This document shows, one piece after another, positions 2,252-29,461 of a stretch of DNA of 64,000 nt (positions are counted from its first letter, which is position 1; each line of letters starts with the position of its first letter). The stretch comes from an uncultured Verrucomicrobiae bacterium. GTDB taxonomy: Bacteria > Verrucomicrobiota > Verrucomicrobiia > Limisphaerales > JAFGQR01. Where the stretch lies: contig CAWBHS010000060.1 in NCBI GenBank assembly GCA_963788655.1, forward strand, positions 1 to 64,000, given 5' to 3'. Made by a program: the position numbers and the translations under genes. The notes beneath the pieces are model-generated. The model was not told the origin of the DNA. It saw only the letters and a program-made list of their open reading frames with translations, and did not search any database.

Positions 2252-2283
2252 GCTGAAACGCTGAAAAGCTGAAATGCTGAAAA
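2252..2283. repeat. Octamer tandem repeat (GCTGAAAN)x4 abutting the sulfotransferase start codon
   Basis: cat|gctgaaac gctgaaaa gctgaaat gctgaaaa. Confidence 0.85.
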
Positions 2284-2309
2284 GGAGATCGAATGATAGA
2301 AATCAGAGC

Positions 2310-3745
2310 TCAATGGCCAGAGGTCAGGCGGCTTGGGGGGATTCTTCCTCGCCCGGGAGTTCGGTTCGAGTTCTTCTTCTTCGGTAAAGACGGGTAAGCC
2401 CGAAGCCAATGCGCGAGAGCGCTCGACCGAAACGCGTAGCATAAGGAAAATCGAACCCACATGCCTACTGCGCCTTCTCTTGGGTAGAAGGTCTGGCCAC
2501 CCAGGGAACCCACAAGCAGGGCCAGAACCAATGCACAAGCTATGCCGCCAGCCGCTGAGCATAGGGGATCAGATCGGTCCAAGAACAAGTGAAAAGCGTG
2601 CCGGATTATCACAAGGTAAAATGAGGCCAAGAGGAGGAATCCGATCAAACCGCTGTCAAGCAGCACTTCCAAGTATGCATTGTGGGGATGAGGGAAGCTT
2701 TCACCGTATTCTGCCATGAGAAAGTCGCTGATGCCCGTGGTCACCATGGCCTCACGCCCGAACCCGACGAGTGGACTATCGCAGATCTTTTTCAAGACGT
2801 ATGGCCAGGCAATGGTGCGACCGGAGGTTATCTCATAATCATCACGCTCAACCACGATATTTCCCTGCTGGCCACCCATCCCTTGCAGAAATCGTTCCCT
2901 GATCCCCGGAAAAAGTACCTAATATGGTAGCAACTCCAACAGGAATGATTGGCAGAAGCTTGCGCCAACGGACCAAACAAAGAATGAAACCGACTGCCGC
3001 CCAACTAACATAACCCGTCCGGCCACCCGTCAGAGCCTGTGCCACGGCCACCACACCAGCTGCAGCAAATACCGCAGCTTGGTGAAGGCGTTTCCGAAAA
3101 AGCACCAGCGTGGCCAAGACGCACCCAACTTGCGCCCCCCAGCATCATTGACAAGGTCACGCGGTTATAGCCGATTTCATTCTGAATGATTTTCGACGCT
3201 CGTTGTGAAAGCTGGTCTCCAGATGCCATTGCGTAGTGCAAGGGCATCCATTTGATGACCTGAAGAGCCAAAAGGATATAGAGCAGGAGAACCGCTGCCA
3301 TGGCCACATGAACGCGTTTCCGCGTGCGACAACCGTCGAACAGTAGCAATCCCGGCAGCAGAAATTTGAAACCGTTAACGAAATGTTCGCTGATGATGTA
3401 GCTGGTGGGGTAACTGGTTTCGTAGCCTTCGCGGGTCCAAAACAAACGAAGGCTGGCAAGAAAGATCACCGCCAAGTAGGCTAGGAGGAGCCACGCAACA
3501 GAATATGGCATACCCCAAACCAAACCTTGTGCCTGGCGTTGCGAGAACCAGGCAAACAGCACATTGAGAATTAGAATGTTCCATGGATTCAGTCCCTGGA
3601 TGCCAGCAATACTCTTAGGCATGTCGGGATGCTCCATGACTGCCATGAGCAGAATTGCAGCGCAAAGCGAAATAAACCAATTCTTCCAAGCGTAAATGGA
3701 GAATCCAATTACGAACAGGAAGCAAAGTGCAACGCGAATGGACAT
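2310..3745 (-). CDS. O-antigen ligase / Wzy-like polymerase family membrane protein (frameshifted)
   Basis: Multi-TM ORFs 3005..3745, 2848..3117 (LTGGRTGYV) and 2310..2879 (ITSGRT...W, HPHNAYLEVLLDSGLIG). Confidence 0.85.
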
Positions 3746-4022
3746 TCTTAAAAAGCTGAAACGCTGAAAGGCTGAAACGCTGAAAGCGGAGGACAGATGT
3801 CAGAGGACGGAGGACGGACGGCAAGATGACAGATGACAGATGACGGACGACGGAGGACGGAGGACATTGTAAAACGCTGAAACGCTGAAACGCTGAAACG
3901 CTGAAAGCAGAGGTCAGAGGTCAGAGAGTCAGGAGTCGGATGACAGAGGACGGAGGACGGAGGACATTCTAAAACGCTGAAACGCTGAAATTCTAAAAGC
4001 TAAAACGCTGAAAGGCTGAAAT
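3746..4022. repeat. Composite spacer 1: (GCTGAAAC)n octamers alternating with CAGAGGA/CGGAGGA/CAGATGA heptamers
   Basis: Read directly; GGAGGACATT(G/C)TAAAA junctions at ~3860 and ~3959. Confidence 0.9.
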
Positions 4023-4232
4023 GGTTATTGGTGTTTGCGGATCTTGGAAACAATGGTCGTAAATATCGCGAGCAACTCGCCGGTTTCTTGCAGTAACGTG
4101 TCGGTTTCTTTGCCTGTTATGCCGCAGTCGTCGCGTAGTAGTTCAATCCAAAGTTGCGTTTCATCCGCCTCCTGTAGCAGTCCGTCGAGTTTCGAGCAGA
4201 ATTCTGCTTCCGAGCGCGCCCGGGATGCTTCT

Positions 4233-4487
4233 TTAGCCTGTTAAATAATGCCTACACCTGTTTTTGATGTACCGTTTTCCGTATGTGGTCTTTAGATATT
4301 TCTCTCTCCGAAAAGCATCTTGCACACTCAGGCAAGCTTCGTAGTAAATTAATTTTAACGGCCGCCGACCACGAGTGGAAGGAACCTTTCCGAACTCGTG
4401 GAGTGTTATCCGCTTGCGCAAATCCCTCGTGCATCCTGTATAGAACTGCCGATCGAAAGTTGAATGTAGAACGTAGACGTAAATCAT
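4233..4487 (-). CDS. GIY-YIG nuclease family protein (minimal, 84 aa)
   Basis: YVYVL...FYTGCTRDLRKRITLH...STRGRRPLKLIYYE...AFRREKYLKT. Confidence 0.92.
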   Translation of the reverse strand: MIYVYVLHSTFDRQFYTGCTRDLRKRITLHEFGKVPSTRGRRPLKLIYYEACLSVQDAFRREKYLKTTYGKRYIKNRCRHYLTG

Positions 4488-4507
4488 CCGACTATTTCAC
4501 AGGCCAA
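4233..4507. mobile_element. ~275-bp insertion with 15-bp imperfect terminal inverted repeats, carrying a GIY-YIG gene
   Basis: TTAGCCTGTTAAATA (4233-4247) vs TATTTCACAGGCCAA (4493-4507): 13/15 inverted match; removal restores the host reading frame. Confidence 0.8.
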
Positions 4508-4656
4508 GCGTGCGCGGCAACGGAGGTTCCGGAACGGAGTAACTGGTGACCCAAAACTTCGACCTCCTTGCGCGAGCATGGCAGACGGACATAGAAGCGT
4601 ATGATTGACGAAGCAAACCGTTTGGTCCGTTCCCGCAATTCTTCAGGAAGACGCAT

Positions 4657-4806
4657 TTTATTTAAACGCTGAAACGCTGAAACGCTGAAATGCTGAAATC
4701 AGAGGACGGAGGTCAGAGATCAGATGACAGACGACGGAGGACGGAGGACAGACCATTTAAGACCTGAAAGGCTGAAACGCTGAAAGACTGAGATACTGAA
4801 AGACTG
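4657..4806. repeat. Composite spacer 2 (octamers-heptamers-GACAGACCATTTAA-octamers)
   Basis: Read directly. Confidence 0.9.
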
Positions 4807-4820
4807 GCATCGGTTACTCG

Positions 4821-5126
4821 TTATTGGTTATCGAGGGATGGTTCGCCTTGCTGGCGTCCATCCCAGCAGCGAAGAATTTCAACCGTGCGGGACTCGTGCT
4901 GAACTCGGTAAAATACCTTGAACCATTTGGTCACGATGAAACGCCTGATGGCCGGTCGCTGCCGGACTCTTGGGTGACGTTCGGGGAAGAATGTTAAACT
5001 CTCGCTTGCATTGATGATTTGCTCACCCAGTCTTCGTGCGGCAATGGGGTTCTTGTCCGCGATGAAGCATACGATGCGTTCGAGGTCAGCCAGAAAGGTT
5101 TCCTGAAAGATTACCTTGAAGTCCAT
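4821..5126 (-). CDS. RelE/ParE family type II toxin
   Basis: FKVIFQETFLADLERIVCFIADKNPIAARRL...LTFFPERHP...VFYRV...VEILRCWDGRQ. Confidence 0.88.
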   Translation of the reverse strand: MDFKVIFQETFLADLERIVCFIADKNPIAARRLGEQIINASESLTFFPERHPRVRQRPAIRRFIVTKWFKVFYRVQHESRTVEILRCWDGRQQGEPSLDNQ

Positions 5127-5362
5127 TGACCCAGGCGTTGCCGGACTTCGTCTCCAGAATAACCACCGTTTTTCGCGCGGTCGGCTTGGGTAACCGCCTC
5201 GTCCAATGCTGCCAAAACATGAGGGTCATCTTCGGAGCATTCGTGTCCACTTGGCGAAGCTTCTTCTTGCGTGATGTAGGCTTGCCAGGATTTTAGGGCG
5301 AGCTCACGCAGTTGATGTGGGGTCAGATTCTGCAGCTCGTTTTCGATTTCGGTAAAGCTCAT
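5111..5362 (-). CDS. Putative antitoxin (addiction-module type)
   Basis: MSFTEIENELQNLTPHQLRELA...YSGDEVRQRLGQWTSR; overlaps the toxin start. Confidence 0.75.
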   Translation of the reverse strand: MSFTEIENELQNLTPHQLRELALKSWQAYITQEEASPSGHECSEDDPHVLAALDEAVTQADRAKNGGYSGDEVRQRLGQWTSR

Positions 5363-5402
5363 CGTCATCCAACGTAACCGGGTTGAGGCCAAAAGGCCAT
5401 TT

Positions 5403-5530
5403 GCATTTGCAAAAGCTGAAAGGCTGAAAGCAGAGGTCAGATGACAGAGGACAGAGGTCAGAGGACAGACCATTTAAAACCTGAAACGCTGAAAATCTGA
5501 AAGGCTGAAACGCTGAAAGGCTGAAAGGGG
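5403..5530. repeat. Composite spacer 3
   Basis: Octamers, heptamers, GACAGACCATTTAAAA, octamers. Confidence 0.9.
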
Positions 5531-5619
5531 GGCGCGAGGCGCAGTTATCGGCAATCGGGCAAATGAAATTATCGGTTAATGGTCATTCTGTTTCTTGGCA
5601 GGCCATTGCAGGTAAAAGG

Positions 5620-5877
5620 CTAACGCAAGTGCTCCACGTCAAGGATGTGCAGAGTCTTAACCATGTGCTCCGACCACCACGTGACGGTCCATGCATTGAA
5701 CCGCTTGACCTGGCAAGGACGCCCAACGTCGTCGAGTTGAGTGTAATCACCCTTAAGAGTTGGATCTGCGACTAATTGCCCAAAGATCCGAAGCAGCTCT
5801 TCCCGCTGGCGTTTGGTGGCCGAGGAGAACGTATCGAGCACTTCATCATCCACCGTATATCGGTAATCGGCTTTCAA
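5620..5877 (-). CDS. Putative RelE-like toxin, uncharacterised family
   Basis: 85 aa; LVADPTLKGDYTQLDDVGRPCQV...VTWWSEHMVKTLHILDVE; 4-bp overlap with upstream gene. Confidence 0.6.
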   Translation of the reverse strand: MKADYRYTVDDEVLDTFSSATKRQREELLRIFGQLVADPTLKGDYTQLDDVGRPCQVKRFNAWTVTWWSEHMVKTLHILDVEHLR

Positions 5878-6086
5878 GAATCCTCAGGCGAAAGCCGGTC
5901 GTGCAATTGCTGCAATTCTTCCGCCGAGTGGCCTTCGCCCTTCAGGGAGCGATTCAATCGACGCCCTAGTTCGGCTGGCCAGCTCGGATCCTCTTGCTTG
6001 GCTCGGCGGCGCAAGTAGTCTGCCAATTCCAAGCGTTCGTCAGCCGAAAGGTGATCGACGGCTGCTTTAATTTCTGCCACACTCAT
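5874..6086 (-). CDS. Putative antitoxin
   Basis: MSVAEIKAAVDHLSADERLELADYL...DPSWPAELGRRL. Confidence 0.65.
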   Translation of the reverse strand: MSVAEIKAAVDHLSADERLELADYLRRRAKQEDPSWPAELGRRLNRSLKGEGHSAEELQQLHDRLSPEDS

Positions 6087-6127
6087 GGTTTTAATTAACA
6101 TTGGCTACAGATTTTTCAAGAGAAGAA

Positions 6128-6345
6128 AACATTGTAAAACGCTGAAAGCAGAGGTCAGAGGACCGATGACGGAGGACAGCAGTCAGGGGTCAGAGATCAG
6201 CGGTCAGAGATCAGAGGTCAGAGGACGGAGGACAGACCATTTAAAAAGCTGAAACGCTGAAACGCTGAAATGCTGAAAGGCGATTCATTAGGACCAAAGG
6301 ACCAAAGGACCACGGACTAAAGGACTTTCTGAAATGCTGAAAAGA
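6128..6345. repeat. Composite spacer 4 (contains 142-bp direct repeat copy 1, 6141-6282)
   Basis: Near-identical to 7357-7498; followed by GGACCAAA/GGACTAAA units. Confidence 0.9.
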
Positions 6346-6373
6346 GGCGTGACGGTGCTCAAGGTCTTGGTGG

Positions 6374-7162
6374 TCAGTCTTCAGTCTTCGGTTTGCTTCG
6401 TTCACGCGCCTCTGCCATCCGAAGCGCTTCCAATTCCCGCTTCAACGGCTCCCAATAGGCACGGTCCTTTTCCTGTTCGGCGCGTGCTTCTGCGTCGAGT
6501 GCCAGACGCAGGGTGATGATGTCAGTCTCCAGTGCGTGACGGAGCAAAGGGCGTGTGCCCACGAGCGCAGCGCTTTCCGCGGAAAAGCGGTGAACCAACT
6601 CAATAAGCCGTTCCGGACCGCGTGCTTCCGTCAGCCAAAAACGGATCCGCTCGGGTGAGGGCTCCATGCCGGTGGCGTGGTAATGCCCTTCCACCAACGC
6701 CTCAATGATGGGCCAGTCCTTGGTGCGCTGGGTCTTCTTTGCTTGAACAAGGTCTTCCACCGCCAGCAGTTCAAACGTGTCGCCATTTTCTTCAGCCAAG
6801 GTAGTGCGACGCGCCCATAGGTCCGTAAAGTCCGGGAGTCCTCGAAGCCGGGTCATGAGGTCCACGCGCAGACCGTCTGCTGCCGGGTGCCGGCACCGAA
6901 AATGCACCGCGTGACCACGCGCCAGCAAGGTGGAATCAAAGGGTGGGACGGCAATTCGCACCGCCTGCAATTCATCGAGCGCCGCGCGGAGCCGAGAGAA
7001 ATTCTCCTCCGCGGCCAGCAGGGCGAGGTCCACGTCCTTACTAAACTGAGCCGCGCCGTAAAACACGCAGGCCTGGCCGCCCATAAGCAGGGCCTGCACC
7101 CGATGCTTGCGGATCGTGGAAAGGACTTGTCGGATCGGGGTCGGGATCAAGGCTGCCTCCAA
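6374..7162 (-). CDS. Pol-beta-type nucleotidyltransferase-like protein
   Basis: LLMGGQACVFYGAAQFSKDVDL (GG...DxD), VDLM, LVQAKKTQRTKD. Confidence 0.7.
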   Translation of the reverse strand: MEAALIPTPIRQVLSTIRKHRVQALLMGGQACVFYGAAQFSKDVDLALLAAEENFSRLRAALDELQAVRIAVPPFDSTLLARGHAVHFRCRHPAADGLRVDLMTRLRGLPDFTDLWARRTTLAEENGDTFELLAVEDLVQAKKTQRTKDWPIIEALVEGHYHATGMEPSPERIRFWLTEARGPERLIELVHRFSAESAALVGTRPLLRHALETDIITLRLALDAEARAEQEKDRAYWEPLKRELEALRMAEARERSKPKTED

Positions 7163-7265
7163 TGCTCAGGTAGTACGCAAACAACTCCTCACTGCGACGG
7201 AATCGCTCCAAGGGAGTCAGGTCGAGCCACTCCTTCCATTCGTCGGGCAATTGCTCGTAGAGCAT
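7041..7265 (-). CDS. Small hypothetical partner of the nucleotidyltransferase-like gene
   Basis: MLYEQLPDEWKEWLDLTPLERFRRSEELFAYYLSIGGSLDPDPDPTSPF; directly upstream and overlapping. Confidence 0.6.
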   Translation of the reverse strand: MLYEQLPDEWKEWLDLTPLERFRRSEELFAYYLSIGGSLDPDPDPTSPFHDPQASGAGPAYGRPGLRVLRRGSV

Positions 7266-7286
7266 GTTTTTAGATGCTGACTGACT

Positions 7287-7527
7287 CAAAAGCTGAAATT
7301 CTGAAACGCTGAAACGCTGAAAAACTGCTGATTAGGACTAAAGGACTTTCTGAAATGCTGAAAGCAGAGGTCAGAGGACCAATGACGGAGGACAGCAGTC
7401 AGGGGTCAGAGGACAGCGGTCAGAGATCAGAGGTCAGAGGACGGAGGACAGACCATTTAAAAAGCTGAAACGCTGAGATGCTGAAATGCTGAAAGGCGGA
7501 CTGAGTAAAACGCTAAAAGGCTGGAAA
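7287..7527. repeat. Composite spacer 5 (contains 142-bp direct repeat copy 2, 7357-7498)
   Basis: Read directly. Confidence 0.9.
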
Positions 7528-7542
7528 TGTTGGGGTCTTCAT

Positions 7543-7798
7543 TCAAGCACGTTCGATATTGATGACGCGCAATTCCTTAACGTGATTATCCAACCAAAAT
7601 GTGATGAAGAATCCCTCATGGAGTCTGATCTGAACCGTCCTGCCGGGTACTGTCGCGCGCTTCGTAATCACCTCGCTGGTAAGGATTCGCCGCCAATTCA
7701 TGCAAGACTTTGATCAAACCTTCCCTTTGGCGTGATTTACAGCCAAAAAGAAACTCCACCGAACTCTGACTCAAGATGAATTGCCAGTCCGAACTCAC
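7543..7798 (-). CDS. Putative RelE-like toxin, paralog of 5620-5877 (frameshift near 7640)
   Basis: MSSDWQFIL...LAANPYQRGDYEARDST / VQIRLHEGFFITFWLDNHVKELRVINIERA*. Confidence 0.6.
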
Positions 7799-8007
7799 AG
7801 GCCTTCAGCTTTCAGAGCATCGTGCAGCCGGGTCACTTGCTCCAATGAAAACTTCTTGCCAGTATCAATTTCGTCATTGAGCCGGGCGAGTTCTGCCTGA
7901 TAGCTCGGATCATCCACCCGGGCCAAATGCTTCAAATAGGCGGCGAGATAGACTCGTTCTTCGGGAGTCAGGTTCTCCGCAGTCTTCTTAATCTCAGTTG
8001 TTGACAT
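7795..8007 (-). CDS. Putative antitoxin, paralog of 5874-6086
   Basis: MSTTEIKKTAENLTPEERVYLAAYL...DDPSYQAELARLN. Confidence 0.65.
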   Translation of the reverse strand: MSTTEIKKTAENLTPEERVYLAAYLKHLARVDDPSYQAELARLNDEIDTGKKFSLEQVTRLHDALKAEGL

Positions 8008-8041
8008 ATTTACAATACTTGCCCGAGGCGGGCTGGTAATC

Positions 8042-8175
8042 AAACGCTGACTGAAGAAAAAGCTGAAAAGCTGAAAAGCTGACAAACTCAAACGCTGAAA
8101 CGCTGAGAAGCTGAAAAGCAGAGAACGAGGACAGCGTGAGGTCAGAGGACAGCCGTCAGTGGTCAGAGGTCAGAA
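8042..8175. repeat. Composite spacer 6
   Basis: GCTGAAAA octamers then CAGAGG heptamers. Confidence 0.85.
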
Positions 8176-8233
8176 ATGCAACAATAAGGATGTTATCACT
8201 CCAATCAGGTTTGCTTTCCAACGACACGGCTAT

Positions 8234-8329
8234 TTACGTCTCAAGAGCAGCTAGACGCACCACTTCCAGGTCGGCCGAGGCCATCCAAAGCCAATCCGCC
8301 GGGTTTCCCGCGTCAGTTTTCCTGGGCAA
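8234..8329 (-). pseudogene. Truncated HEPN-like partner of the MNT gene
   Basis: TTG start, MPRKTDAGNPADWLWMASADLEVVRLAALET*; overlaps MNT stop; resembles HEPN helix 1. Confidence 0.55.
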
Positions 8330-8672
8330 TGAGCACTCCTTCCCGGAGCACGGTGGCAAAGAAGGCGTCGTGAGCCGCTTTCTTTTCCGCCAATCGCTCC
8401 AGGGCAATCGGCAGGAGGGTGAAAGCAGGCTTGGGGCGAATGGGCCTCATGGCGTGGCGGAAAGATTGCGCGGCTTTGAGCTGTGCCGCAGCGCCCTCTG
8501 CCACGACGCAAAGATCAACGTCGCTATCGGCGCGAGCCTCGCCACGGGCGTGCGAACCAAAAAGATAAACTGCCTTGAGCGGCATCACCCGATTCATGGC
8601 CTCAAGGCATCGCACCAAGCTGTCATGCTGGGAATGCAACGAAGCAGGCAGGTTGTCCATTAAGAGTTTCAT
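8313..8672 (-). CDS. Minimal nucleotidyltransferase (MNT, MntA-like)
   Basis: VYLFGSHARGEARADSDVDLCVV. Confidence 0.9.
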   Translation of the reverse strand: MKLLMDNLPASLHSQHDSLVRCLEAMNRVMPLKAVYLFGSHARGEARADSDVDLCVVAEGAAAQLKAAQSFRHAMRPIRPKPAFTLLPIALERLAEKKAAHDAFFATVLREGVLIAQEN

Positions 8673-8696
8673 AACTGGAGACGACTTGAAAGGCGG

Positions 8697-8775
8697 ACTG
8701 AAGAAAACGCTGAAACATTCTAAAACGCTGAAAACGCTGAAAACCTGAAATGCTGAAAGGCTGAAAACTGAAAGG
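8697..8775. repeat. Spacer 7 (octamer run with ACATTCTAAAA motif)
   Basis: Read directly. Confidence 0.85.
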
Positions 8776-8797
8776 TTCGGGGAGCGGTTATCAATGG

Positions 8798-8977
8798 TCA
8801 TTTATCAGTGGATGGCCGCTGGGGTTGCCGCCGCTGCCGCAATGAACTGGAGGCGATGAGCCTACTGCGGTCGCGCAATTTCTCCAGCAGCGCGAGTTTT
8901 TCCGCAAATGGGAGGGCAGCCAGTTGTTTGCGTGTCACCTGCTTGTCGGCCAGGATTCTTTCGGTCAGCGGAATCAT
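8798..8977 (-). CDS. Small hypothetical protein (59 aa; not in the ORF track)
   Basis: MIPLTERILADKQVTRKQLAALPFAEKLALLEKLRDRSRLIA...; ATGA overlap with the upstream gene. Confidence 0.6.
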   Translation of the reverse strand: MIPLTERILADKQVTRKQLAALPFAEKLALLEKLRDRSRLIASSSLRQRRQPQRPSTDK

Positions 8978-9495
8978 GCGTTTTCCTCAAGAAACTTGTC
9001 ACTAAATGCCTGCCATTGAACAAGAAGTCCGTGGCGAGTGATAATGTCGCGGAGTTGAAGCCGGTTAATGACATCATTTTCCAGAAATTGGGTGATCCGG
9101 ATTTTGTCCTTTAACCGTCCGGTTTTCAGGGCAATGGCCAACAGATGTTCAGCGGTCATCACGCGTGTCTTGATTCCGTCCACATCCGTGGTGACCGCGG
9201 CGGCAATGGCCTCCTCCTCCAAAGGGCTGCCCGGGGGAAGAAATTGCACCGGCCAGCCGGCAATGATGATGTGCTCTCTCTCGACCTTGCAGCCACGTTT
9301 TCTGAGATAATCATATATGGGGGCCAGGGTGATTATTGAACGGTCGGGGTGATGCTGGAAGGAAACGAAAACATCAATATCGAGCGTGGCAGCAGGTTCG
9401 AGGTAAAAGGTGGCCCCGACAGCTCCACCAATGGCATATTGGCCAATGACGCCATCCGCCCGCATCTGGTTGATGATTTGCAGGGTACCTTTCAT
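8974..9495 (-). CDS. Nucleotidyltransferase-like protein
   Basis: YAIGGAVGATFYLEPAATLDIDVFV ... EHLLAIALKTGRLKD. Confidence 0.7.
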   Translation of the reverse strand: MKGTLQIINQMRADGVIGQYAIGGAVGATFYLEPAATLDIDVFVSFQHHPDRSIITLAPIYDYLRKRGCKVEREHIIIAGWPVQFLPPGSPLEEEAIAAAVTTDVDGIKTRVMTAEHLLAIALKTGRLKDKIRITQFLENDVINRLQLRDIITRHGLLVQWQAFSDKFLEENA

Positions 9496-9507
9496 GATTC
9501 TTTAGGA

Positions 9508-9643
9508 GAACATTCTAAAACGCTGAAAGGCGCAGAGGTCAGCCGTCAGCCGTCAGAGGACAGAGGACAGAGGACAGATGCTGGTTACGGAATGACGGAA
9601 TTCACGAAATGCTGAAATCCTGAAATACTAAAACGCTAAAACG
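9508..9643. repeat. Composite spacer 8
   Basis: ACATTCTAAAACGCTGAAA, heptamers, octamers. Confidence 0.85.
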
Positions 9644-9648
9644 ATGAG

Positions 9649-9896
9649 TCATGGGTTTCTTTTTGGCGCGAGCCAGCTTTCCAAGTCCTCCAGGCTGGTA
9701 AAATCCAGCAGCGCTTCACTGAGGGGTTCCAGACCGATCCAAAGGCAAATGACCAATGGCATTTTCGACTTGCATTGGCAAGGCTTGGAAGCGTTTGCGA
9801 GCCAGGCGAGATGACCAGATTCGCGGCTTCTTCCCGCCGGCCTTCTTGCCGGCCTTCCTGTCGGCCAACCCGTTCGATGCTTGTTACATAAGGCAT
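9649..9896 (-). pseudogene. Rpn/DUF4351-type C-terminal remnant
   Basis: MPYVTSIERVGRQEGRQEGRREEA... then, in another frame, LEPLSEALLDFTSLEDLESWL. Confidence 0.7.
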
Positions 9897-9955
9897 AGCT
9901 TTTTCACTTTCAATGCCCAGAATATCCGGATCTTTGTGTTCTTTGCGTTCTTTGC

Positions 9956-10757
9956 TCGCAGCCCATAAGGCTGCCAGTCCAGCCGGTGGAAGTCCGGCGA
10001 TGGTAAATGACGATGAACCATCCAGTGATAACCGACATGAGATTTCGGGGTGACCCGGCTCATGCAAGCTCGGTAGTAAACGTCCTGACCGGAGCAGGGC
10101 CAGCAACCTCTCCAGGCCGTAGCATCAAGCGAATGCTGCAGCTTCGTTACGCAACCCACGCGATCCGGAATCGTGGGACTTGTGGTGGTCGAGCCGGTGC
10201 AAAGACGGCGAAGACAGAATCCACGACGAAGGCATCGTCGAGTGCAGTCGTGGGCGCCACCGGAGTACGGGCGACGGCATGGGAGGAACGGACTGGCAGA
10301 GTAAATTGGGGACCCGCTACGGTTGGCGGGATGGACCCGCAATCCGACGGAATAATCCATAAGCCGTGGGATGGCCGTCAGAGGCGCAGATGTGGCCATA
10401 GTAAGCAACGATCCGGTCGGACAATACAACCGACTGGGGAGCCAAGGGCCACTGGATCCGCGGTTCAGGTCAGAAATCATCGGTGCCGCTTGGACGCAAG
10501 TCCGACTACGGATAAAACGCCGGGGATGGAGATACGAACAGTGACGGCCTATAAGCCGGCGTGGAGACGCTGGCGAAGGTGGCCGTGGCGTGAAGCGGGT
10601 TTGAAGCCGGTACTGGGGAAAACCCACCGTACGGAATTTTAGAGGGGGTGGAGGAAACGAAATGCATGGCCTGGTAGCCGTTTGCCACGATGCCCGAAAG
10701 GGCCGATACCTTGGAAGTTACTGGCCTAAACATGTTCGCGCCTCCGCTCTACTCGAT
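9956..10757 (+). mobile_element. ORF-less group II intron (~800 nt), antisense to the polysaccharide locus
   Basis: Domain V-like GAAGCCGGTACTGGGGAAAACCCACCGTACGGAATTTTAGAGGGGG (~10603-10648); domain VI ending CTCTACTCGAT; removal restores TTCTTTGC|GGTT; no RT ORF; 5' boundary uncertain by 1-2 nt. Confidence 0.82.
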
Positions 10758-10848
10758 GGTTGATTCCTCTCGTCTTAATTTTGTCGTTAGTTGGCGAGGC
10801 GCCGACCAAAGAGCCCGAGGCAGGCGCGCTCCCGACTACTATTTAATT

Positions 10849-11048
10849 AACCACAGAGAACACAGCGGTCCCAAAAGATGATTGTCAGAAGAAACAGTGA
10901 TCACAATCACCCGTCATGGCTCCAATATGCTTTCAAGAGTATTCGGATCTTTGTGATCTCTGCGATCTTTGCGGTTGGTTTCTCTCGTTTTGGTTTCGGC
11001 GTTGGTTGGCGAGGCGCCAACCAAAGCACCCGAGGCGGGCGCGCTCCC
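10849..11048. repeat. Composite repeat: AACCACAGAG...CTTTGCGGTT hairpin (10849-10976) plus REP-like palindrome (11004-11048); intron-free copy
   Basis: Similar to 9925-9955+10758-10833 and to 18451-18462+20441-20627. Confidence 0.8.
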
Positions 11049-11873
11049 TTTGTTCAGCAGCGGGAGGTGCCGGTGTTTGGCTGGAGTCAACATGGCGCCG
11101 GCGAAGGCCCAGAGGCAGATGGCGTTGGTTTTGGCGTAACGCCAGAACATGCGGCGGGGTTCCTGCACCACCCGGTAAAGCCATTCACAGCCGATACGTT
11201 GGAGCCACAGTGGCGAACGTTTCACCAAGCCCGCCATGACATCGAAGCTGCCTCCCACACCCTGGATGACCGTGGCGCCCAGGTGGCAGGCGTGTTGGGC
11301 CGCGAACCGCTCTTTCATCGGCGTGCCCATGCCCAGGAAGAGGATGTCCGGCCGGGCCGCGCGAACTTGGTCAACGACTGTCTTTGCTTCCGTTGGTGAG
11401 AAGTAGCCGTTGCGGAAGCCGGCCATTTGGAGGCGCGGGAATTCCTGGGTAATCCGGCGAACGCAAGCCTCGACCACTGGTTGTTTGGCCCCCAGCAGAT
11501 AGACACGGTATCCGTGTTCATTAGCCAGGGACAGCAACTTCCACATCAGGCCAATACCGTCAATTCGCTCGGGAATATGGACGCCTAGCAAGCGGGCCAT
11601 GGGTACGATGGGTTGGCCATCGGTGAGCACGTAATCGGACTGCCACAGGATGCGGCCCATTTCCGGGTCCTGTCGTACCTGGGCCACTTTGTTGGCGTTG
11701 ACGAACTGTATAACCTTGGGGCCAGTCTTGGTGTCAATGGCCTGGCGGAGTTCGGCCAGCAACTGATTGCTCGTCAGCAGATCCAGGGGACAGCCGAGGA
11801 AGTTGGCGCGGCGGTTGTTTTCGATCTTCTTAACCACGAATGAACACCAATAGACACAAATGAAATTCAACAA
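10914..11873 (-). CDS. WecB/TagA/CpsF family glycosyltransferase
   Basis: VNANKV, TDGQPIV, ERIDGIGL, YLLGA, RNGYF, FLGMGTP, GVGGSFD, EWLYRVVQEPRRM; true start probably downstream of 11873. Confidence 0.93.
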   Translation of the reverse strand: MLNFICVYWCSFVVKKIENNRRANFLGCPLDLLTSNQLLAELRQAIDTKTGPKVIQFVNANKVAQVRQDPEMGRILWQSDYVLTDGQPIVPMARLLGVHIPERIDGIGLMWKLLSLANEHGYRVYLLGAKQPVVEACVRRITQEFPRLQMAGFRNGYFSPTEAKTVVDQVRAARPDILFLGMGTPMKERFAAQHACHLGATVIQGVGGSFDVMAGLVKRSPLWLQRIGCEWLYRVVQEPRRMFWRYAKTNAICLWAFAGAMLTPAKHRHLPLLNKGSAPASGALVGASPTNAETKTRETNRKDRRDHKDPNTLESILEP

Positions 11874-11904
11874 CCCCGGTACACAGGAGGCAACGGAGAA
11901 TCGA

Positions 11905-11992
11905 TGCTGAAATCAGAGATCAGAGGACGGAGGACAGCAAACAGATGACAGAGGACGGAGGACGGAGGACAGTGAACGAATGTCAGAGGACA
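11905..11992. repeat. Heptamer array (CAGAGGA/CGGAGGA)
   Basis: Read directly; inverted relative to 12436-12552. Confidence 0.85.
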
Positions 11993-12006
11993 ATGGGCGT
12001 AAGGTT

Positions 12007-12393
12007 TTAACGGGCATTGGGGCAGAATTTTTCAGGATGCGCCATCATGGTGCCCAGCATTCGCCCGATTTCTTGGCACTTTTCGTTGAGTTCAACTTGC
12101 ACTGCTTGCGAGACGTAATTACAGGCCGCAGAAGTATCGATCCAATGTTGAGTTTCTGCTTGCTCACCATCAGCGTCAGTCAACTTGCTAACGAAATGAG
12201 CAGGGTAATTCCTTTTATGCCATGCCTCGGCGATATTGGACCCGATCGACCTGGACGACCTCCGGATTTGGTCGGTGAGCGCATATTGTTCTTCTCTTGG
12301 AAACGTTCCGCACGACTTGAAGATTTCCTGCTGGAGATCGAATGCCGCCTGATAAACTCGCAGATCTCGAAAACTTGAAATCTTGTCCGCCAT
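12007..12393 (-). CDS. Four helix bundle (23S rRNA IVP-like) protein
   Basis: SFRDLRVYQAA...FPREEQYALTDQIRRSSRSIGSNIAEAW...FVSKLTDADGEQAETQHW. Confidence 0.95.
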   Translation of the reverse strand: MADKISSFRDLRVYQAAFDLQQEIFKSCGTFPREEQYALTDQIRRSSRSIGSNIAEAWHKRNYPAHFVSKLTDADGEQAETQHWIDTSAACNYVSQAVQVELNEKCQEIGRMLGTMMAHPEKFCPNAR

Positions 12394-12435
12394 AACCTTC
12401 TCGATCTTCCCACTTCTCCTTCTTCGTGTTTTGAC

Positions 12436-12552
12436 TTCCGTCCTGACCTCGTCTTCCGACCTCTGCCCTCTGTCCTCCGTCTTCTGTCTTCCGTCTTCTG
12501 TCCTCGTCCTCCGTCCTCTGCCCTCCGTCCTCTGCCTCCGTCCTCTGCCTCA
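12436..12552. repeat. Heptamer array (TCCTCTG/TCCTCCG), opposite orientation
   Basis: Read directly. Confidence 0.85.
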
Positions 12553-12554
12553 GA

Positions 12555-13997
12555 CTAACTCGCGCCTTTGCCGAGGAGGACGACGGGGATGGTTTTGAGA
12601 AGGATTTTGAGGTCGAGCCAGATCGACCAGTTCTCGATGTATTGGCGGTCAAGCTCCATCCATTTGGCAAAGGGGATGTTGTTGCGGCCGCTTACTTGCC
12701 ACAGACAGGTAATTCCGGGTTTGATGGAAAGCCGGCGGCGATAGATCCAATCGTATTGATCGACTTCAGTCGCCAGTGGAGGCCGGGGACCAACAAGCGA
12801 CATTTCCCCTTTGAGGACGTTGAAAAGCTGGGGCAGTTCGTCAATGCTGGTTTTTCGGATCCAACGGCCAATCGGAGTGACGCGCGGGTCATTCTTGATT
12901 TTGAACACCGGTCCTTCCTGCTCATTCAGGCTGGCGAGTTCGTGTTTGCGCGCCTCGGCATCGACGATCATGGAGCGGAATTTGAGGAGCTTGAACTTGC
13001 GCTTGTTCATGCCGATACGCTCCTGCCGGAAAAAAACGGGGCCGGGACTGGTTGATTTGATCAGAATGGCGACGATCAGCAGTAAGGGGCTGAGTAACAC
13101 CAGAAGCGTGAACGAAACGATCAGATCCATGCTCCGTTTCACCAGTAACTGCCATAGAAGGTGTTCGCGGAAGAACGTGACGACACAATCGCCGTCAAAC
13201 AGTTCAACCTGCGACTGGGCAAAAGTTTTGATGTCCGCCAGATCCGGTACGATACGGACCACCACACCCAGGTCGCGGCATAGTCTGGTGATTTCGTAAA
13301 TGTCTTTGAAGGCTTCCTTCAACGGCAGGCAGACCATAACTTCATCCACCTCCCGCTGTTCCAGGAAAGGCTTGAAGCCGCTCACACGGTCCAAAATCGG
13401 CCACCCGGCCACTTTGGCTTGATCGCCATCTGAAGCGCGGTCGTTCTCCGCGATAAAGCCAGCAATCCGGTAGCCGAGTTCCGGGCTGCCTTCAATCCGG
13501 TGGGCAAAATCCAACGCGCGCTGATTAGTGCCCACAAAGACGAGATGCCGGCAGTTGAGTCCGGACTTGCGCAGGGTCATCAGAAGCCATCGCAAAACGA
13601 TTCGACTGGTAATGCACAGGAGGCAGGTGACTGGCCAGAACAGCCCGATGACCACCTTGGACAGGATCGAGATGTCCAGGGCGGCATCGATGATGAACAA
13701 CAGAAAGGTGGCAGCGGCCGTGGCTTTTACCACGCCGGCCAGGGAGGTAGCCAAAGAAGTGAAGCGGTTGGCATCGTAGTGGACCAGGTAATTGAAAACC
13801 AACGCCCATCCGGCCAACAGCATCATGGCGCCCACCGCATTCAAGCCGCTGTGAATGGCAACGAAACTATCGTAGAGAAACCTGAAACTGCCCCGCTCAT
13901 GCACGTAGGCAATCAGCAGAATCAGGGTTCCGACCAGGATGACCTGATCAGAGAGCCGAAAGGCGTGAATCAACAGCTTGTGCCGGAGGCGGAGCAT
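12555..13997 (-). CDS. Polyprenyl glycosylphosphotransferase (WcaJ/CpsE-type priming sugar transferase)
   Basis: N-terminal TMs, VFVGT, KRSMD, KFRSM, DPRVTPIGRWIRKTSIDELPQLFNVLKGEMSLVGPRP, KPGITCLWQV. Confidence 0.95.
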   Translation of the reverse strand: MLRLRHKLLIHAFRLSDQVILVGTLILLIAYVHERGSFRFLYDSFVAIHSGLNAVGAMMLLAGWALVFNYLVHYDANRFTSLATSLAGVVKATAAATFLLFIIDAALDISILSKVVIGLFWPVTCLLCITSRIVLRWLLMTLRKSGLNCRHLVFVGTNQRALDFAHRIEGSPELGYRIAGFIAENDRASDGDQAKVAGWPILDRVSGFKPFLEQREVDEVMVCLPLKEAFKDIYEITRLCRDLGVVVRIVPDLADIKTFAQSQVELFDGDCVVTFFREHLLWQLLVKRSMDLIVSFTLLVLLSPLLLIVAILIKSTSPGPVFFRQERIGMNKRKFKLLKFRSMIVDAEARKHELASLNEQEGPVFKIKNDPRVTPIGRWIRKTSIDELPQLFNVLKGEMSLVGPRPPLATEVDQYDWIYRRRLSIKPGITCLWQVSGRNNIPFAKWMELDRQYIENWSIWLDLKILLKTIPVVLLGKGAS

Positions 13998-13998
13998 G

Positions 13999-14368
13999 GG
14001 GCAGAGGGCAGAGGACAGGGGACGGAGGACGGAGGTCAGCGATCAGAGGACAGCGATCAGGGGTCAGTGATCAGGAGTCAGGGGGCAGAAATCAGGGGTC
14101 AGTGATCAGGGGTCAGTGATCAGGGGTCAGTGATCAGGGGTCAGTGATCAGGGGTCAGTGATCAGGGGTCAGTGATCAGGGGTCAGTGATCAGGGGTCAG
14201 TGATCAGGGGTCAGTGATCAGAGGACAGTGATCAGAGGACAGTGATCAGAGGACAGTGATCAGAGGACAGTGATCAGAGGACAGTGATCAGAGGACAGTG
14301 ATCAGGGGTCAGTGATCAGAGGTCAGTGATCAGAGGTCGGACTTGCTGAAATACTGAAACGCTGAAAC
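13999..14368. repeat. Tandem repeat of a 14-bp unit (TCAGTGATCAGGGG / ACAGTGATCAGAGG), ~17-18 copies in 14091-14338, with degenerate flanks
   Basis: Read directly. Confidence 0.95.
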
Positions 14369-14439
14369 TGTTGGATGACAGAGGAATTGGTTCTTTGGAT
14401 TTCTCTTGGCGAATTGGGCACATCTTCTCTGTTTGACTC

Positions 14440-14484
14440 GGTTGGCGAGGCGCCAACCGGTGCGCCCGGGGCGGGCGCGCTCCC
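14440..14484. repeat. REP-like palindrome family A (GGTTGGCGAGGCGCCAACC...GGCGGGCGCGCTCCC)
   Basis: Other copies at ~10790, 11004, 15869, 20582, 23271 (reverse) and 23363. Confidence 0.85.
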
Positions 14485-14493
14485 CGATGCGGA

Positions 14494-15843
14494 TCAGAGG
14501 TCGGGGAAGTCGAGACGCGGATAGTTAATCGAGATGCTCTTGCGGCCGGTTTCGTCAGGGGCGTTGGCAGTGAAGGTTAACGGTTCATTGTCGTTAAAGC
14601 GAAGCCGGACTCGCTCGGGGTCGGGAACGTAAATGGTTAAGCCAGCCAGGTCTTCCTTTTGAATTTGTGGCTGGTTTGGAAACTGGCCCTGGTTAGCAGC
14701 ATTGATATTAACCAGGTGCTCGCCATTCTGGCGCTCGGTGGTTACCCGCACGCGCTGAATCATTTGTTGAAAATCGAGCAGCCGGCGGGTGGTGGTTACG
14801 AGGATCTTACGGCGATAATAGTGATCGGCAAGCCGGCGAAAAGCAGCAATGGTGGCCGCGTTGAATCCTCGTTGTCCCGGACCGAGCTTGCCGAGGTGGG
14901 TGTAAAGGATGCAGGACCCCTGACGACCAACCAACGTGTCCAAGAAATTATCGGTGAGCACGGTGCTGATCCCAACGCCGGTGTCTCTACAACTCACGCC
15001 TCCCCAGTGCGGGTTGCAGCGAAGGAACTCGAGGGCCGGGGCGTTGTCGCGCAGGCGAATGGAGTGCATCAGCCGGTTGGGGCGGTGCAGGGCGTATTTG
15101 CGATGGCCACAGCGGGCGAGGAGTTGTTTAGCGGTTTCTTTGGCAAGCGTGCCGGAGGCTGCTAACAAATGGCCCGAGGACAGAGGTCGGAGGACAGCGG
15201 ACAGAGGACAGAGGTCGGAGATCAGATTACGGAATCGAAAGGGTTGGTCCTGGCCGATTACGCTGGTGATACGGCCGCGCCACACATACTGGATTCCGTA
15301 AGCCAGGGTCAGGTCGGCATGGTAAGCCGGGTGGCCATGGTCATCGCCATGGCCTTGCATGATGTCGGAGCCGAAGTTGGTGGGCGCAATCGCGTGATCC
15401 ACCCAAACTCGAAGACGGCAATCGTGCTTCTGTAACTCGTCCAGCGCTCGGGCGGCATGCGCCCGCGTGGTTGCCAGGTCGCCAAAGGAATGAAGGACAT
15501 CAATGTGCCCGCTCTGAATGAGGGTGCGGATGCGGGCTCGGTCGTACTCGTCGGCATTCCAGTAGGCGAAATGGTTCGGAGCCATATCGAAGTAGATGCT
15601 GTTTCCGACTTCCAGCCCCACGCCTTGGCCCATCGAGGTGGGGCCGGTCGTGTTGAGAAACCGGATGATTTCACAATAGGTTTCGGCGCCCGGAGTTTCA
15701 TCCAAGTCGCTGCAGATGGCCATGGCGGCCCGGTAGGGATACGGGAACCGACGCAACTCGGCTGTGAAGGCCGAGGACGGGCGGGGCAACGGCGCCCGGT
15801 GAGGGCGCGGTTCTCTATTCAATAGATTGGATTCGCAGTCCAT
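14494..15843 (-). CDS. Polysaccharide deacetylase-like hypothetical protein
   Basis: FPYPYRAAMAICSDLD, HSFGD, WVDH, ILYTHLG; in-frame repeat insert at 15176-15225. Confidence 0.65.
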   Translation of the reverse strand: MDCESNLLNREPRPHRAPLPRPSSAFTAELRRFPYPYRAAMAICSDLDETPGAETYCEIIRFLNTTGPTSMGQGVGLEVGNSIYFDMAPNHFAYWNADEYDRARIRTLIQSGHIDVLHSFGDLATTRAHAARALDELQKHDCRLRVWVDHAIAPTNFGSDIMQGHGDDHGHPAYHADLTLAYGIQYVWRGRITSVIGQDQPFRFRNLISDLCPLSAVLRPLSSGHLLAASGTLAKETAKQLLARCGHRKYALHRPNRLMHSIRLRDNAPALEFLRCNPHWGGVSCRDTGVGISTVLTDNFLDTLVGRQGSCILYTHLGKLGPGQRGFNAATIAAFRRLADHYYRRKILVTTTRRLLDFQQMIQRVRVTTERQNGEHLVNINAANQGQFPNQPQIQKEDLAGLTIYVPDPERVRLRFNDNEPLTFTANAPDETGRKSISINYPRLDFPDL

Positions 15844-15931
15844 CGGGCAGCAATGTCGCCAAGGTAACCGGCGAGGGGCCGGTTGGAACGTCCGAGGCGG
15901 GCGTGCTCCCCGACGTAATTCACATTACACG

Positions 15932-18295: not shown

Positions 18296-18440
18296 GGGGG
18301 GACGGAGGACGGAGGACAGAGGACGGAGATCAGCCCGCAGGGGACAAGGAGGCAGGGGGCAGGTGGTCGGTAATCAGTGGTCGCTGGTCAGATGCCAGAT
18401 GTGGAACATTCTCAAATGCTGAAATGCTGAAAGACTGAAA
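18296..18440. repeat. Heptamer plus octamer composite spacer upstream of the deacetylase gene
   Basis: GGACGGAGGACGGAGGACAGAGG...ACATTCTCAAATGCTGAAATGCTGAAA. Confidence 0.8.
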
Positions 18441-20440: not shown

Positions 20441-20795
20441 CAGAGAGCACAGAGGACGATTTCAACAGAACATCTTGGAACATGCCTTCTACCGAGGTTC
20501 AGACATACTTTCAAAATGGTGCAGCTTTTTGCGGTCTGTGCGATCTTTGCGGTTAAATTCCTTTGTTTTGATTTCGTCTCTGGTTGGCGAGGCGCCAACC
20601 GGGGCGCCCGGGGCGGGCGCGCTCCCCACTGGTACACGCTGCCGCACTTGGCCAAGTCCCTTTCATGGGACTTGGCGTTACCACCGGCACTATGCACAAA
20701 ATTCGTGCCACTGAGTTACACCAGTTCCTTCCCTGGTACGACCGGTCTTTTTACCGGCGCTTATTCCAGTTCCCATTCAAGATGAGACTTCAATC

Positions 20796-28921: not shown

Positions 28922-29461
28922 TTGAGACCCAAAGGAACTCAAGCTGAACTGGAAAATCGCCGTTTGCGTTTGCTGCATCTGATCGAACAAGGAGTGCCCG
29001 CAGCCGCAGTCGCGCAAGAATTTGGCGTTAGCCTGCGAAGTGTTCGTCATTGGAACCAATTGGCCAGAAACGCCGGCCCCGAAGCGCTCAAGTCCAAGCC
29101 AACTCCAGGACGACCTCGCAAGCTGTGTGCCGCGGCTTCTTTAAAGTTGAAGAAGATGTTGGTTCAAGGCGCCCAAACCGCGGGGTTCGCCGACGACTTG
29201 TGGTCCGGCCCAAGAATCGCGCAACTTATCGCCAGCATTTTTGGCATCCGCTACCATGTCGATCACATTGGCCGGTTACTGCGCACTTTGGGTTGGAGTA
29301 TGCCGGAATTGAACGAGTTTGTAGCGAAGCGTACGAAGGAGGAAGATCGGGATCTGAAATCTGCGACTGGCCTTAAGCGAAATCAGATAACATTCGTTGC
29401 CCCCGCATTTGTGCATCCTCCCCCATCCAGTGGTGTCGGTGCTTTGGTCGGGGGAAGTTAA
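28922..29461 (+). CDS. IS630-family transposase N-terminal winged HTH protein, no DDE domain
   Basis: MRPKGTQAELENRR, GVSLRSVRHW, GRPRKL, LWSGPRIAQLI, YHVDHIGRLLRTLGWS. Confidence 0.8.
   Translation: MRPKGTQAELENRRLRLLHLIEQGVPAAAVAQEFGVSLRSVRHWNQLARNAGPEALKSKPTPGRPRKLCAAASLKLKKMLVQGAQTAGFADDLWSGPRIAQLIASIFGIRYHVDHIGRLLRTLGWSMPELNEFVAKRTKEEDRDLKSATGLKRNQITFVAPAFVHPPPSSGVGALVGGS

Follow-up and report, generated by a model that had tools for sequence, protein, structure and literature searches.

How does a polysaccharide operon come to hold a row of small, unrelated genes that are set apart by near-identical repeats, much as cassettes are in an integron? The question is raised by positions 3746-9896 of the window analysed here, which is a stretch of 64,000 nucleotides (positions 1 to 64,000 of contig CAWBHS010000060.1, GenBank assembly GCA_963788655.1) from an uncultured Verrucomicrobiae bacterium. 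Eight gene units, all on the minus strand according to the table of open reading frames (ORFs) and family scans, lie there within a surface-polysaccharide operon whose core genes are also separated by tandem-repeat arrays. A preliminary description of this DNA had proposed a gene capture and shuffling system that uses short tandem repeats as its sites. The observation is real and is confirmed by our analysis, and the interpretation is partly supported. We consider it probable that 3.7-9.9 kb is a zone where selfish genes have accreted in a polysaccharide operon, with the spacer modules between them copied locally by repeat-mediated recombination.

Repeat spacers and the units they separate

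Repeats were identified by direct reading of positions 3000-10600 and with Tandem Repeats Finder (TRF). In the gaps between the small minus-strand ORFs of 3746-9896, TRF places period-8 arrays with the consensus GCTGAAAN and period-7 arrays (CAGAGGA, CGGAGGA, GTCAGAG and similar); GACAGAT, GACGGAG and GACAGAG units are also present in the window. The strand bias first described for these spacers is borne out. The octamer pair CTGAAANNCTGAAA occurs 41 times, in all 41 cases on the plus strand, against 0.01 expected (mean of 100 shuffles), so that these are tandem units of the 5-11 nt class, beyond chance, that defines long simple-sequence repeats. GCTGAAA is found 65 times on the plus strand and 5 times on the minus strand, CAGAGG 51 and 12 times, and all arrays within 3746-9896 are direct. 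The octamer strand that reads CTGAAA contains TGA, so three units stop all three frames; the TTTCAG strand is open.

Two junction motifs recur exactly. One, the 17-nt GAGGACAGACCATTTAA, stands at 4744, 5461, 6228 and 7444, the four places already reported for it, with 0 copies expected; the other, ACATT[C/G]TAAAACGCTGAAA, stands at 3864, 3964, 6129, 8715 and 9510. Both hold an ATG in the gene sense, and one 120-codon ORF from them runs in frame into ORF 5111-5362. A role of the junctions as upstream ORFs or in translational coupling was considered and dropped, since the ORFs they open are 3-39 codons long and have no consistent end point.

The spacers, all with plus-strand arrays, differ in how these parts are put together. 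That at 3746-4024 runs octamers-heptamers-octamers-heptamers-octamers, with GACAGAT units and an internal tandem duplication of ~100 nt. Octamers, heptamers and the first junction (4744-4760) make up 4657-4820, and the same junction (5461-5477) with 6 octamers lies in 5363-5619. The spacer at 6087-6373 holds a block at 6129-6282 and the left copy of a direct repeat (6244-6343), whose right copy (7288-7364) lies in 7269-7615 together with a further first junction (7444-7460). At 8011-8312 there are octamers (8058-8119) and heptamers (8138-8174) followed by ~140 nt of unique sequence; 8673-8797 has octamers only; and 9496-9635 has the second junction, heptamers and degenerate octamers.

Comparison between spacers reveals local copying. 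The block 6129-6282 is 94% identical to 7345-7498, though the toxin-antitoxin-like pairs adjoining the two blocks are only 41% (antitoxin-like ORFs) and 27% (toxin-like ORFs) identical in protein, values on which a recent duplication of the pairs themselves was rejected. The unit at 6374-7268 is bracketed by the direct repeats just mentioned, of ~80-100 bp, each made of four octamers and a unique ~40-nt piece, with one 23-nt indel between the copies. That spacer modules were copied by recombination is the best reading of these identities. Given local copying, the uniform strand of the arrays is best explained by common descent and need not reflect a requirement of the repeats.

A composite module of octamers, junction, heptamers and octamers has been copied between gaps, likely by slippage, by unequal or homologous recombination, or by gene conversion. 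Each of the unrelated selfish genes is followed by such a copy, with its arm-type heptamers and octamers, and the copying gives both the regular alternation of cassette and spacer and the uniform strand. The most economical mechanism is recombination between the repeats, together with slippage, in a part of the operon that is co-transcribed and tolerant. We infer that recombination between arrays drives the gain, loss and duplication of units, and changes in array length may modulate or switch polysaccharide genes.

Could the spacers be attC-like sites? Five of them, folded on both strands, gave z scores of -2.05 to +0.68, no better than shuffles, and neither imperfect palindromes nor hairpins of the attC kind were found in them; the statement that the spacers are non-palindromic and lack attC therefore holds. 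Miniature inverted-repeat transposable elements, which carry terminal inverted repeats and a target-site duplication, are no better match, the composite modules having direct terminal arrays. No integrase and no other tyrosine or serine recombinase, IntI-type included, came up in ~60 Pfam and NCBIfam ORF scans (some ORFs were scanned twice, and coverage of the window's small ORFs was incomplete). Consensus scans of 1.5-19 kb found 7 sigma-70-type promoters (7.6 expected from shuffles) and 20 terminators (18.9 in shuffles), in neither case an excess. The units are thus co-oriented, small and mostly promoterless-looking, as integron cassettes are, and this likeness, with near-identical spacers between unrelated genes as in chromosomal integrons with homogeneous attC, is what speaks for a dedicated platform. 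Rfam searches of the window at gathering thresholds, and of 9.6-21.2 kb at E <= 0.01, returned pieces of group II introns only, and no family in the spacers.

What would have accreted between the spacers? The units were identified by Pfam and NCBIfam profile scans, which bore out most of the first assignments and revised several. The four-helix-bundle (S23p/TIGR02436) gene at 4025-4656 is present as described, and turns out to be split by a GIY-YIG ORF (4233-4487, 84 residues, E 1.1e-11) that had escaped notice, the N half lying at 4492-4656 (profile positions 3-40) and the C half at 4025-4240 (43-108). Set against an intact homolog in another genome (L071), the two halves meet at residue ~49/50, and the intruding ORF has the look of a free-standing insertion, of the homing-endonuclease type, within another selfish gene. 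The borders of this insertion carry no repeats. In the unit at 4821-5362 a ParE toxin (4821-5126, ParE_toxin E 1.3e-10) is overlapped by 16 nt by a small upstream ORF (5111-5362). A ParE/RelE-fold toxin with an overlapping upstream partner is the arrangement of type II (ParDE) toxin-antitoxin systems, and this ORF, which has no family match and had been called an antitoxin outright, is a putative one.

Two further toxin-antitoxin-like pairs, described as paralogous, are so only distantly (see above) and appear specific to the lineage. The first (5620-6086, with a weak TIGR02574 match at E 0.0076) has a toxin-like ORF (5620-5877), whose nearest Atlas clusters are hypothetical proteins with Verrucomicrobiota as the commonest phylum, and an antitoxin-like ORF (5874-6086). 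The second (7543-8010) has an antitoxin-like ORF (7795-8010) and a toxin-like ORF spread over the frames 7616-7798 and 7543-7713, which from the alignment we read as frameshifted and so the pair as decayed. Among the three nucleotidyltransferase modules originally listed, the minimal one at 8313-8672 is solid (NTP_transf_2 E 1.1e-9, with a partial MntA-antitoxin-like match) and alone of the window's cassettes matched candidate systems in PADLOC (PDC-S09 and others). The other two have weak matches below the Pfam cut-off: ORF 6374-7162, which with the small ORF 7041-7268 forms the unit 6374-7268, to NTP_transf_5, and the DUF2204-like ORF 8974-9495 (E 0.0069), which forms a unit with the small ORF 8798-8977 (8798-9495) and whose call is backed by an Atlas cluster match of 0.99. 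The last unit, the DUF4351 remnant at 9636-9903, is real (E 1.1e-6) and frameshifted, and lies in another frame (9649-9903).

With a frameshifted toxin, a split four-helix-bundle gene and the DUF4351 remnant, several units are decayed, and the locus is in this respect more like a graveyard than like a platform in use. When the cassette proteins were compared by tblastn with the loci fetched from other genomes (see below), only the four-helix-bundle halves found relatives; the other 11 cassette ORFs used as queries had none.

Heptamer arrays and the arms of S23p elements

Where might the heptamers come from? An intact four-helix-bundle gene (12007-12393, minus strand) stands between a wecG-like gene and the gene for a priming sugar transferase (12555-13997), and is matched by the 23S_rRNA_IVP family of Pfam at E 2.5e-32 and by the NCBIfam family at 5.6e-30. 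It lies within inverted heptamer arrays (11921-11991 and 12443-12551), the whole forming an intervening-sequence-like cassette at 11921-12551. In the gene-sense RNA the purine-rich 5' arm pairs with the pyrimidine-rich 3' arm over ~100 nt, and the cassette folds with a minimum free energy of -258.4 kcal/mol, where 20 shuffled sequences give -219.8 +/- 7.9 kcal/mol (z -4.87). Complete S23p elements would accordingly be units whose inverted arrays enclose the ORF in a long RNA stem.

The closest known counterpart is the 23S rRNA intervening sequence, described by Warrier et al. (2016, PMC4990558) as a 428-nt selfish element with an S23p ORF, terminal inverted repeats that are cut by RNase III, and tandem GACAGAT heptamers, variable in number, just upstream of the ORF. 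The window cassette shares the PF05635/TIGR02436 ORF family, the terminal inverted repeats that put the ORF in a stem, and GACAGAT-type purine-rich heptamers upstream of the ORF in the sense strand. In contrast to the published element, the window copies are not in 23S rRNA helices; the intact one is between protein-coding cistrons and the split one (4025-4656) inside the cassette array, and their arms consist of tandem arrays that reach lengths of ~100 nt. Within 3746-9896, moreover, arms are one-sided only, and the resident ORF, which matches the family in two halves, has no enclosing stem. By analogy with the rRNA case, complete elements may be cut from the transcript by RNase III.

The enclosing arrangement is found around further four-helix-bundle genes. 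Under one criterion fixed for all genes and controls (arms of >=20 nt and >=75% identity, separated by 330-560 nt), inverted tandem-repeat arms flank 13 of the 17 four-helix-bundle genes taken from the window, the scanned genomes and plasmids, whereas 34 of 400 random windows of long loci pass; the genes that fail it are the split window copy, L068 (whose arms are 16 nt), L130 and L137. Five genes of the scanned genomes (two in L004, and one each in L071, L068 and L040) lie within inverted tandem arrays whose units differ between genomes. The two L004 cassettes (6521-6994 and 8899-9370), with arms of GTTATYG heptamers, sit exactly between consecutive nuo-type operon genes. In a plasmid sample picked by protein similarity alone (22 records, mostly Nostocales, of which 10 were fetched), 8 of 10 genes, which count among the 13, are preceded by a purine-rich tandem array and followed by the complement of that array. 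One of the plasmid copies, from Azospirillum (L136, 645-1113), has arms made of the window's own CAGAGGA/CGGAGGA heptamers, with a protein only 36% identical, so that conservation seems higher in the arm repeat than in the protein. We found no account of S23p cassettes with tandem-repeat arms outside rRNA in the open-access literature, where nothing specific to the repeats or to S23p cassettes with repeats surfaced besides PMC4679880 and PMC4990558.

The CAGAGGA-type heptamers of the spacers thus match, in sequence, the arm repeats of S23p intervening-sequence-type elements, and the purine-rich CAGAGGA/GACGGAG/GACAGAT spacer family would be of that origin. The proposed tie between spacer repeats and mobile elements survives to this extent, and their use as dedicated capture sites is unsupported. 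The heptamer arrays within 3746-9896 are all of the downstream-arm type for minus-strand genes and none has an inverted partner, so the main array is not a row of complete elements.

Are the S23p elements nevertheless the active agent? They would on this account insert between cistrons and leave solo arms or mini-hairpins as preferred sites of landing or recombination, at which other selfish genes gather, so that half-elements stacked one on another would make up the main array. We regard this as unlikely. It would explain the excess of inverted arms around four-helix-bundle genes, the exact placement of the two elements between nuo genes, the arm type of the heptamers throughout the main array, and the existence of inverted octamer pairs with no ORF (12 of 80 arrays, see below). 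Homologs of the split copy, 74-84% identical over its N half, also lie 0-18 nt from octamer arrays in L071, L122 and L127, but L122 and L127 are loci of 622-726 nt that were selected for arrays, so that ascertainment is biased. The intervening sequence has been proposed to be mobile, with its ORF aiding mobility (PMC4990558); that mobility is a proposal only, and the protein has no known enzymatic activity. The arm units, furthermore, vary by genome and match repeats found elsewhere in that genome, which the elements might therefore have borrowed and not seeded, and the single four-helix-bundle gene of the main array is a broken copy.

A broader form of the idea, which we hold to be doubtful, is that S23p intervening sequences are no peculiarity of rRNA but widespread small mobile cassettes between operon cistrons in several phyla, whose shed 7-8 nt arms seed arrays and serve as portable sites of insertion or recombination for other selfish genes, making the array a natural integron analogue that needs no recombinase. 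The arms of such cassettes, tandem repeats of 7-8 nt, are perhaps bound by the pentameric four-helix-bundle protein.

Arrays in core genes and in other genomes

The arrays are not particular to the small units. They extend from 2252 to 18440 (TRF), and outside 3746-9896 they lie at 2252, 11921, 12443 (the inverted array 12443-12551), 14002-14368, 15176, 17537-17678 and 18300-18440, two of them inside ORFs. Four octamers (2252-2284) separate ORF 1501-2175 from an O-antigen-ligase-like gene (2310-3745, minus strand), which is itself split into a Wzy_C part (2310-2879) and a membrane N part (3005-3745) and is possibly a pseudogene. The 125-nt gap between its two ORFs is without repeats. Heptamers, a 14-mer in 22 copies and octamers fill 13998-14368, directly upstream of the priming sugar transferase gene, and the last heptamer and octamer arrays are at 18300-18440. 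The 14-mer, GGTCAGTGATCAGG, occupies 14034-14338 with ~22 copies within these ~370 nt of arrays.

Had the repeats been equally common between all genes, the proposal of dedicated sites would have lost its footing, and the result on this point is divided. Among gaps of >=40 nt, counted by hand, 12 of 15 in 1.5-18.5 kb have arrays, against none of the 18 after 20.6 kb, so the window is uneven and the arrays are concentrated at the locus, as a platform would have them. The same array types nonetheless stand between and inside core polysaccharide genes and, elsewhere, beside housekeeping genes. On these grounds, and with no recombinase among the scanned ORFs, a capture and shuffling system that uses the repeats as sites is not supported.

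In the genes examined, the arrays keep the frame. A heptamer array (15176-15220) adds 14 residues to the product of ORF 14494-15843 and is absent in 6 of 7 homologs. An octamer/heptamer array (17537-17678) makes an insertion of ~60 residues in a deacetylase-like and DUF354 fusion (15932-18295); the fusion architecture is common to many homologs, and the insertion is absent in 3 of the 7 aligned and variable in the rest. In L071, a Terrimicrobiaceae locus, an rfbG-like ORF of 500 residues (11359-12858) has three in-frame repeat insertions; its alignment with the CDP-glucose 4,6-dehydratase 1rkx (E 2.8e-91) falls into three blocks. Taken together, these arrays add 14-69 residues at loop positions that are also variable in homologs, and all 5 intragenic arrays examined (2 in the window, 3 in L071) are in frame, a count biased by the fact that arrays were noticed through open ORFs. 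Such in-frame arrays in conserved enzymes are of interest in their own right.

How far do the octamers reach? A scan of genome contigs for three octamers gave at least 128 stretches in at least 127 loci, 80 of them with long flanks. By record title, 65 of the 127 matches listed are from Verrucomicrobiota/Kiritimatiellota, 26 from Bacteroidota and 36 from other groups. NG spacers within the GCTGAAAN unit are found in 232 of 305 cases in the listed loci of the Planctomycetes-Verrucomicrobia-Chlamydiae (PVC) superphylum and in 35 of 41 in the window; the Bacteroidota loci use CTGAAAC[C/T] or CTGAAAGT instead. The first spacer family is a simple-sequence repeat of intergenic regions, and sometimes of coding loops, across Verrucomicrobiota. 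No paper on GCTGAAAN octamer arrays in Verrucomicrobia was found in the open-access literature. In several loci (L003, L015, L020, L022 and L113, which are Bacteroidales/Rikenellaceae, and L018, a metagenome chromosome) CTGAAAC[C/T] arrays share intergenic regions with several unrelated tandem repeats. A blastn comparison of the window with the 127 loci gave repeat-level or short matches only, and no syntenic or close relative among them. The best protein hits bear Verrucomicrobiae or Limisphaerales names, and on that basis the source is probably a verrucomicrobium.

The orientation of 80 arrays was recorded in 39 de-duplicated PVC loci among the matches listed, with crude longest-ORF calls that can miss small genes beside arrays (as with the four-helix-bundle gene of L071). 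Of these arrays 27 are inside called ORFs, and in 25 of the 27 the sense strand reads TTTCAG; 12 belong to inverted pairs; 6 lie between convergent and 5 between divergent genes; 8 have no near neighbour; and those between co-directional genes divide 11 to 11 between the two orientations. Inverted octamer pairs (CTGAAA..., a short spacer, ...TTTCAG) stand between genes in L008, L011, L013, L016, L023, L056 and L122, and those in verrucomicrobial loci look like ORF-less mini-hairpins. The 64 newly scanned array-adjacent ORFs are ordinary genes or have no family match, with neighbours such as nuoJ, an ABC transporter, ffh, lysS, nusG, mgtE, rplS, hisI, guaB, purA, gatB, der, lolA, eda and acrB, and one sugar transferase with a Wzy gene; none of the 64 is a toxin-antitoxin or four-helix-bundle gene. 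Housekeeping neighbours and balanced orientation do not support the view of the repeats as dedicated recombination sites.

Several arrays occur together in polysaccharide clusters (L011, L013, L071, L076), in toxin-antitoxin clusters (L025, L017, L058), and in pyruvate:ferredoxin oxidoreductase and dapA/dapB neighbourhoods, among other loci. L071 has, in order, a four-helix-bundle gene, octamers, an rfbF-like and the rfbG-like gene, and a PDDEXK_3 gene, a layout similar to that of the window in that four-helix-bundle and PDDEXK_3 genes are interleaved with rfb genes and arrays. Downstream of the PDDEXK_3 gene (13560-13923) a ~60-nt unit is present in at least 5 tandem copies, and related shorter copies occur between the rfb genes.

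Do the arrays then act in cis? They could be hypermutable contingency repeats, through switching or changes in untranslated-region length, or arrays that bind a regulator as RNA or DNA, an explanation that we judge improbable. Unit lengths that are not multiples of three, arrays in or near surface-polysaccharide genes (in the window, L011, L013, L023, L071 and L076), the ~370 nt of arrays directly upstream of the priming transferase gene and the in-frame position of the 5 intragenic arrays are what such elements would look like. The octamer motif is also conserved across verrucomicrobial groups (by record title, Opitutales, Chthoniobacterales and Limisphaerales, for example), and intergenic TAACTGA heptamers have been proposed as sites of a post-transcriptional regulator (PMC4679880). 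Many arrays elsewhere, however, flank housekeeping genes, where switching is implausible; orientation and distance to start codons are not fixed; and the in-frame count is subject to the bias given above.

Other mobile DNA, known systems and the weight of the readings

The preliminary statement that no integrase or transposase is nearby holds for integrases among the ORFs scanned; mobile DNA of other kinds, however, is present in the window. A group II intron occupies 18463-20402 (minus strand), with a reverse transcriptase/maturase ORF at 18595-20067, by Rfam and protein family scans, and Rfam places a domain 1-4 fragment lacking the reverse transcriptase ORF at 9980-10127 (plus strand, opposite to the genes). 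An ORF at 28922-29461 matched helix-turn-helix families only (HTH_33, HTH_28 and others), typical of transposase N termini, and is probably a transposase-like fragment. Repeats of ~130 nt (10703-10833, 10918-11048 and 20496-20626) are common to the regions of the intron fragment and the complete intron; on the fragment side they overlap the end of the wecG-like ORF, and the copy at 20496-20626 is just past domain 1-4 as matched in the complete intron. A further element, a double hairpin of 46 nt with two GC-rich stem-loops (70-100% identity), recurs at 10789, 11004, 14440, 15866 and 20582, at least the copies at 14440 and 15866 being just downstream of a gene end; it may be terminator-like, REP-like or an intron target.

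Several known systems resemble the locus in part. The cyanobacterial heptamer repeats known as STRR are long simple-sequence repeats in prokaryotes. Rickettsia palindromic elements, each a single palindromic element of ~100-150 bp, are short repeated DNA carried in frame in conserved genes; the window arrays likewise keep the frame of conserved protein-coding genes, whereas the inserts are tandem arrays of 7-8 nt units and not one palindrome. MacGregor (2015, PMC4679880) documented strand-oriented intergenic TAACTGA heptamers, and the survey of long simple-sequence repeats summarised there has heptamers as the commonest class. Like the repeats of that class (units of 5-11 nt), those of the window are tandem, of 7-8 nt, mostly intergenic, lineage-restricted, strand-oriented and often in mixed arrays (PMC4679880). 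They differ in the GCTGAAAN unit and the Verrucomicrobiota-centred hosts, and in that octamer arrays are often inverted pairs, insert in frame into conserved enzymes and are linked to four-helix-bundle cassettes. Contingency loci, the concept of phase-variable simple-sequence repeats in surface polysaccharide genes cited in PMC4679880, share units that are not multiples of three, in and beside polysaccharide genes; here, in contrast, octamer arrays flank housekeeping genes elsewhere as well, and length polymorphism was not observed.

That said, selfish-gene accretion with local copying of the spacers has to answer several objections. Gain or loss of a unit was never observed. Neutral repeats spread over the genome would not be expected to concentrate so strongly in this locus. 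Inverted arms enclose none of the eight units, the split four-helix-bundle gene included, so complete elements alone fail to account for the main array. Site-directed integration of a circle could likewise have produced the direct repeats around 6374-7268. Comparison with other genomes, finally, is limited by crude ORF calls, which can hide small genes beside arrays, and by the 80 long-flanked loci within the scan.

A dedicated integron-like platform, on which some recombinase would capture, excise and shuffle circular or linear units at the tandem-repeat spacers, is very unlikely: it shares with chromosomal integrons the co-oriented small cassettes rich in toxin-antitoxin genes and the homogeneous repeats between unrelated genes, and could have left the direct repeats around 6374-7268 by Campbell-type integration, but the lack of an IntI among the ORFs scanned, the spacers with no attC-like fold, the decay of the units, and repeats that also occur between and inside core genes and, in both orientations, across unrelated loci all stand against it.

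The analysis thus clears away the claim that this is a new integron-like system, which was tempting but lacks support. In its place it ties together the S23p/four-helix-bundle family, the puzzle of the rRNA intervening sequences, and the strand-oriented heptamer and octamer repeats of intergenic regions. If true in a larger sample, the cassette with repeat arms would make the origin and mobility of intervening sequences testable in ordinary operons, and its architecture hints at the way in which surface-polysaccharide loci come to gather both repeat arrays and small selfish genes.

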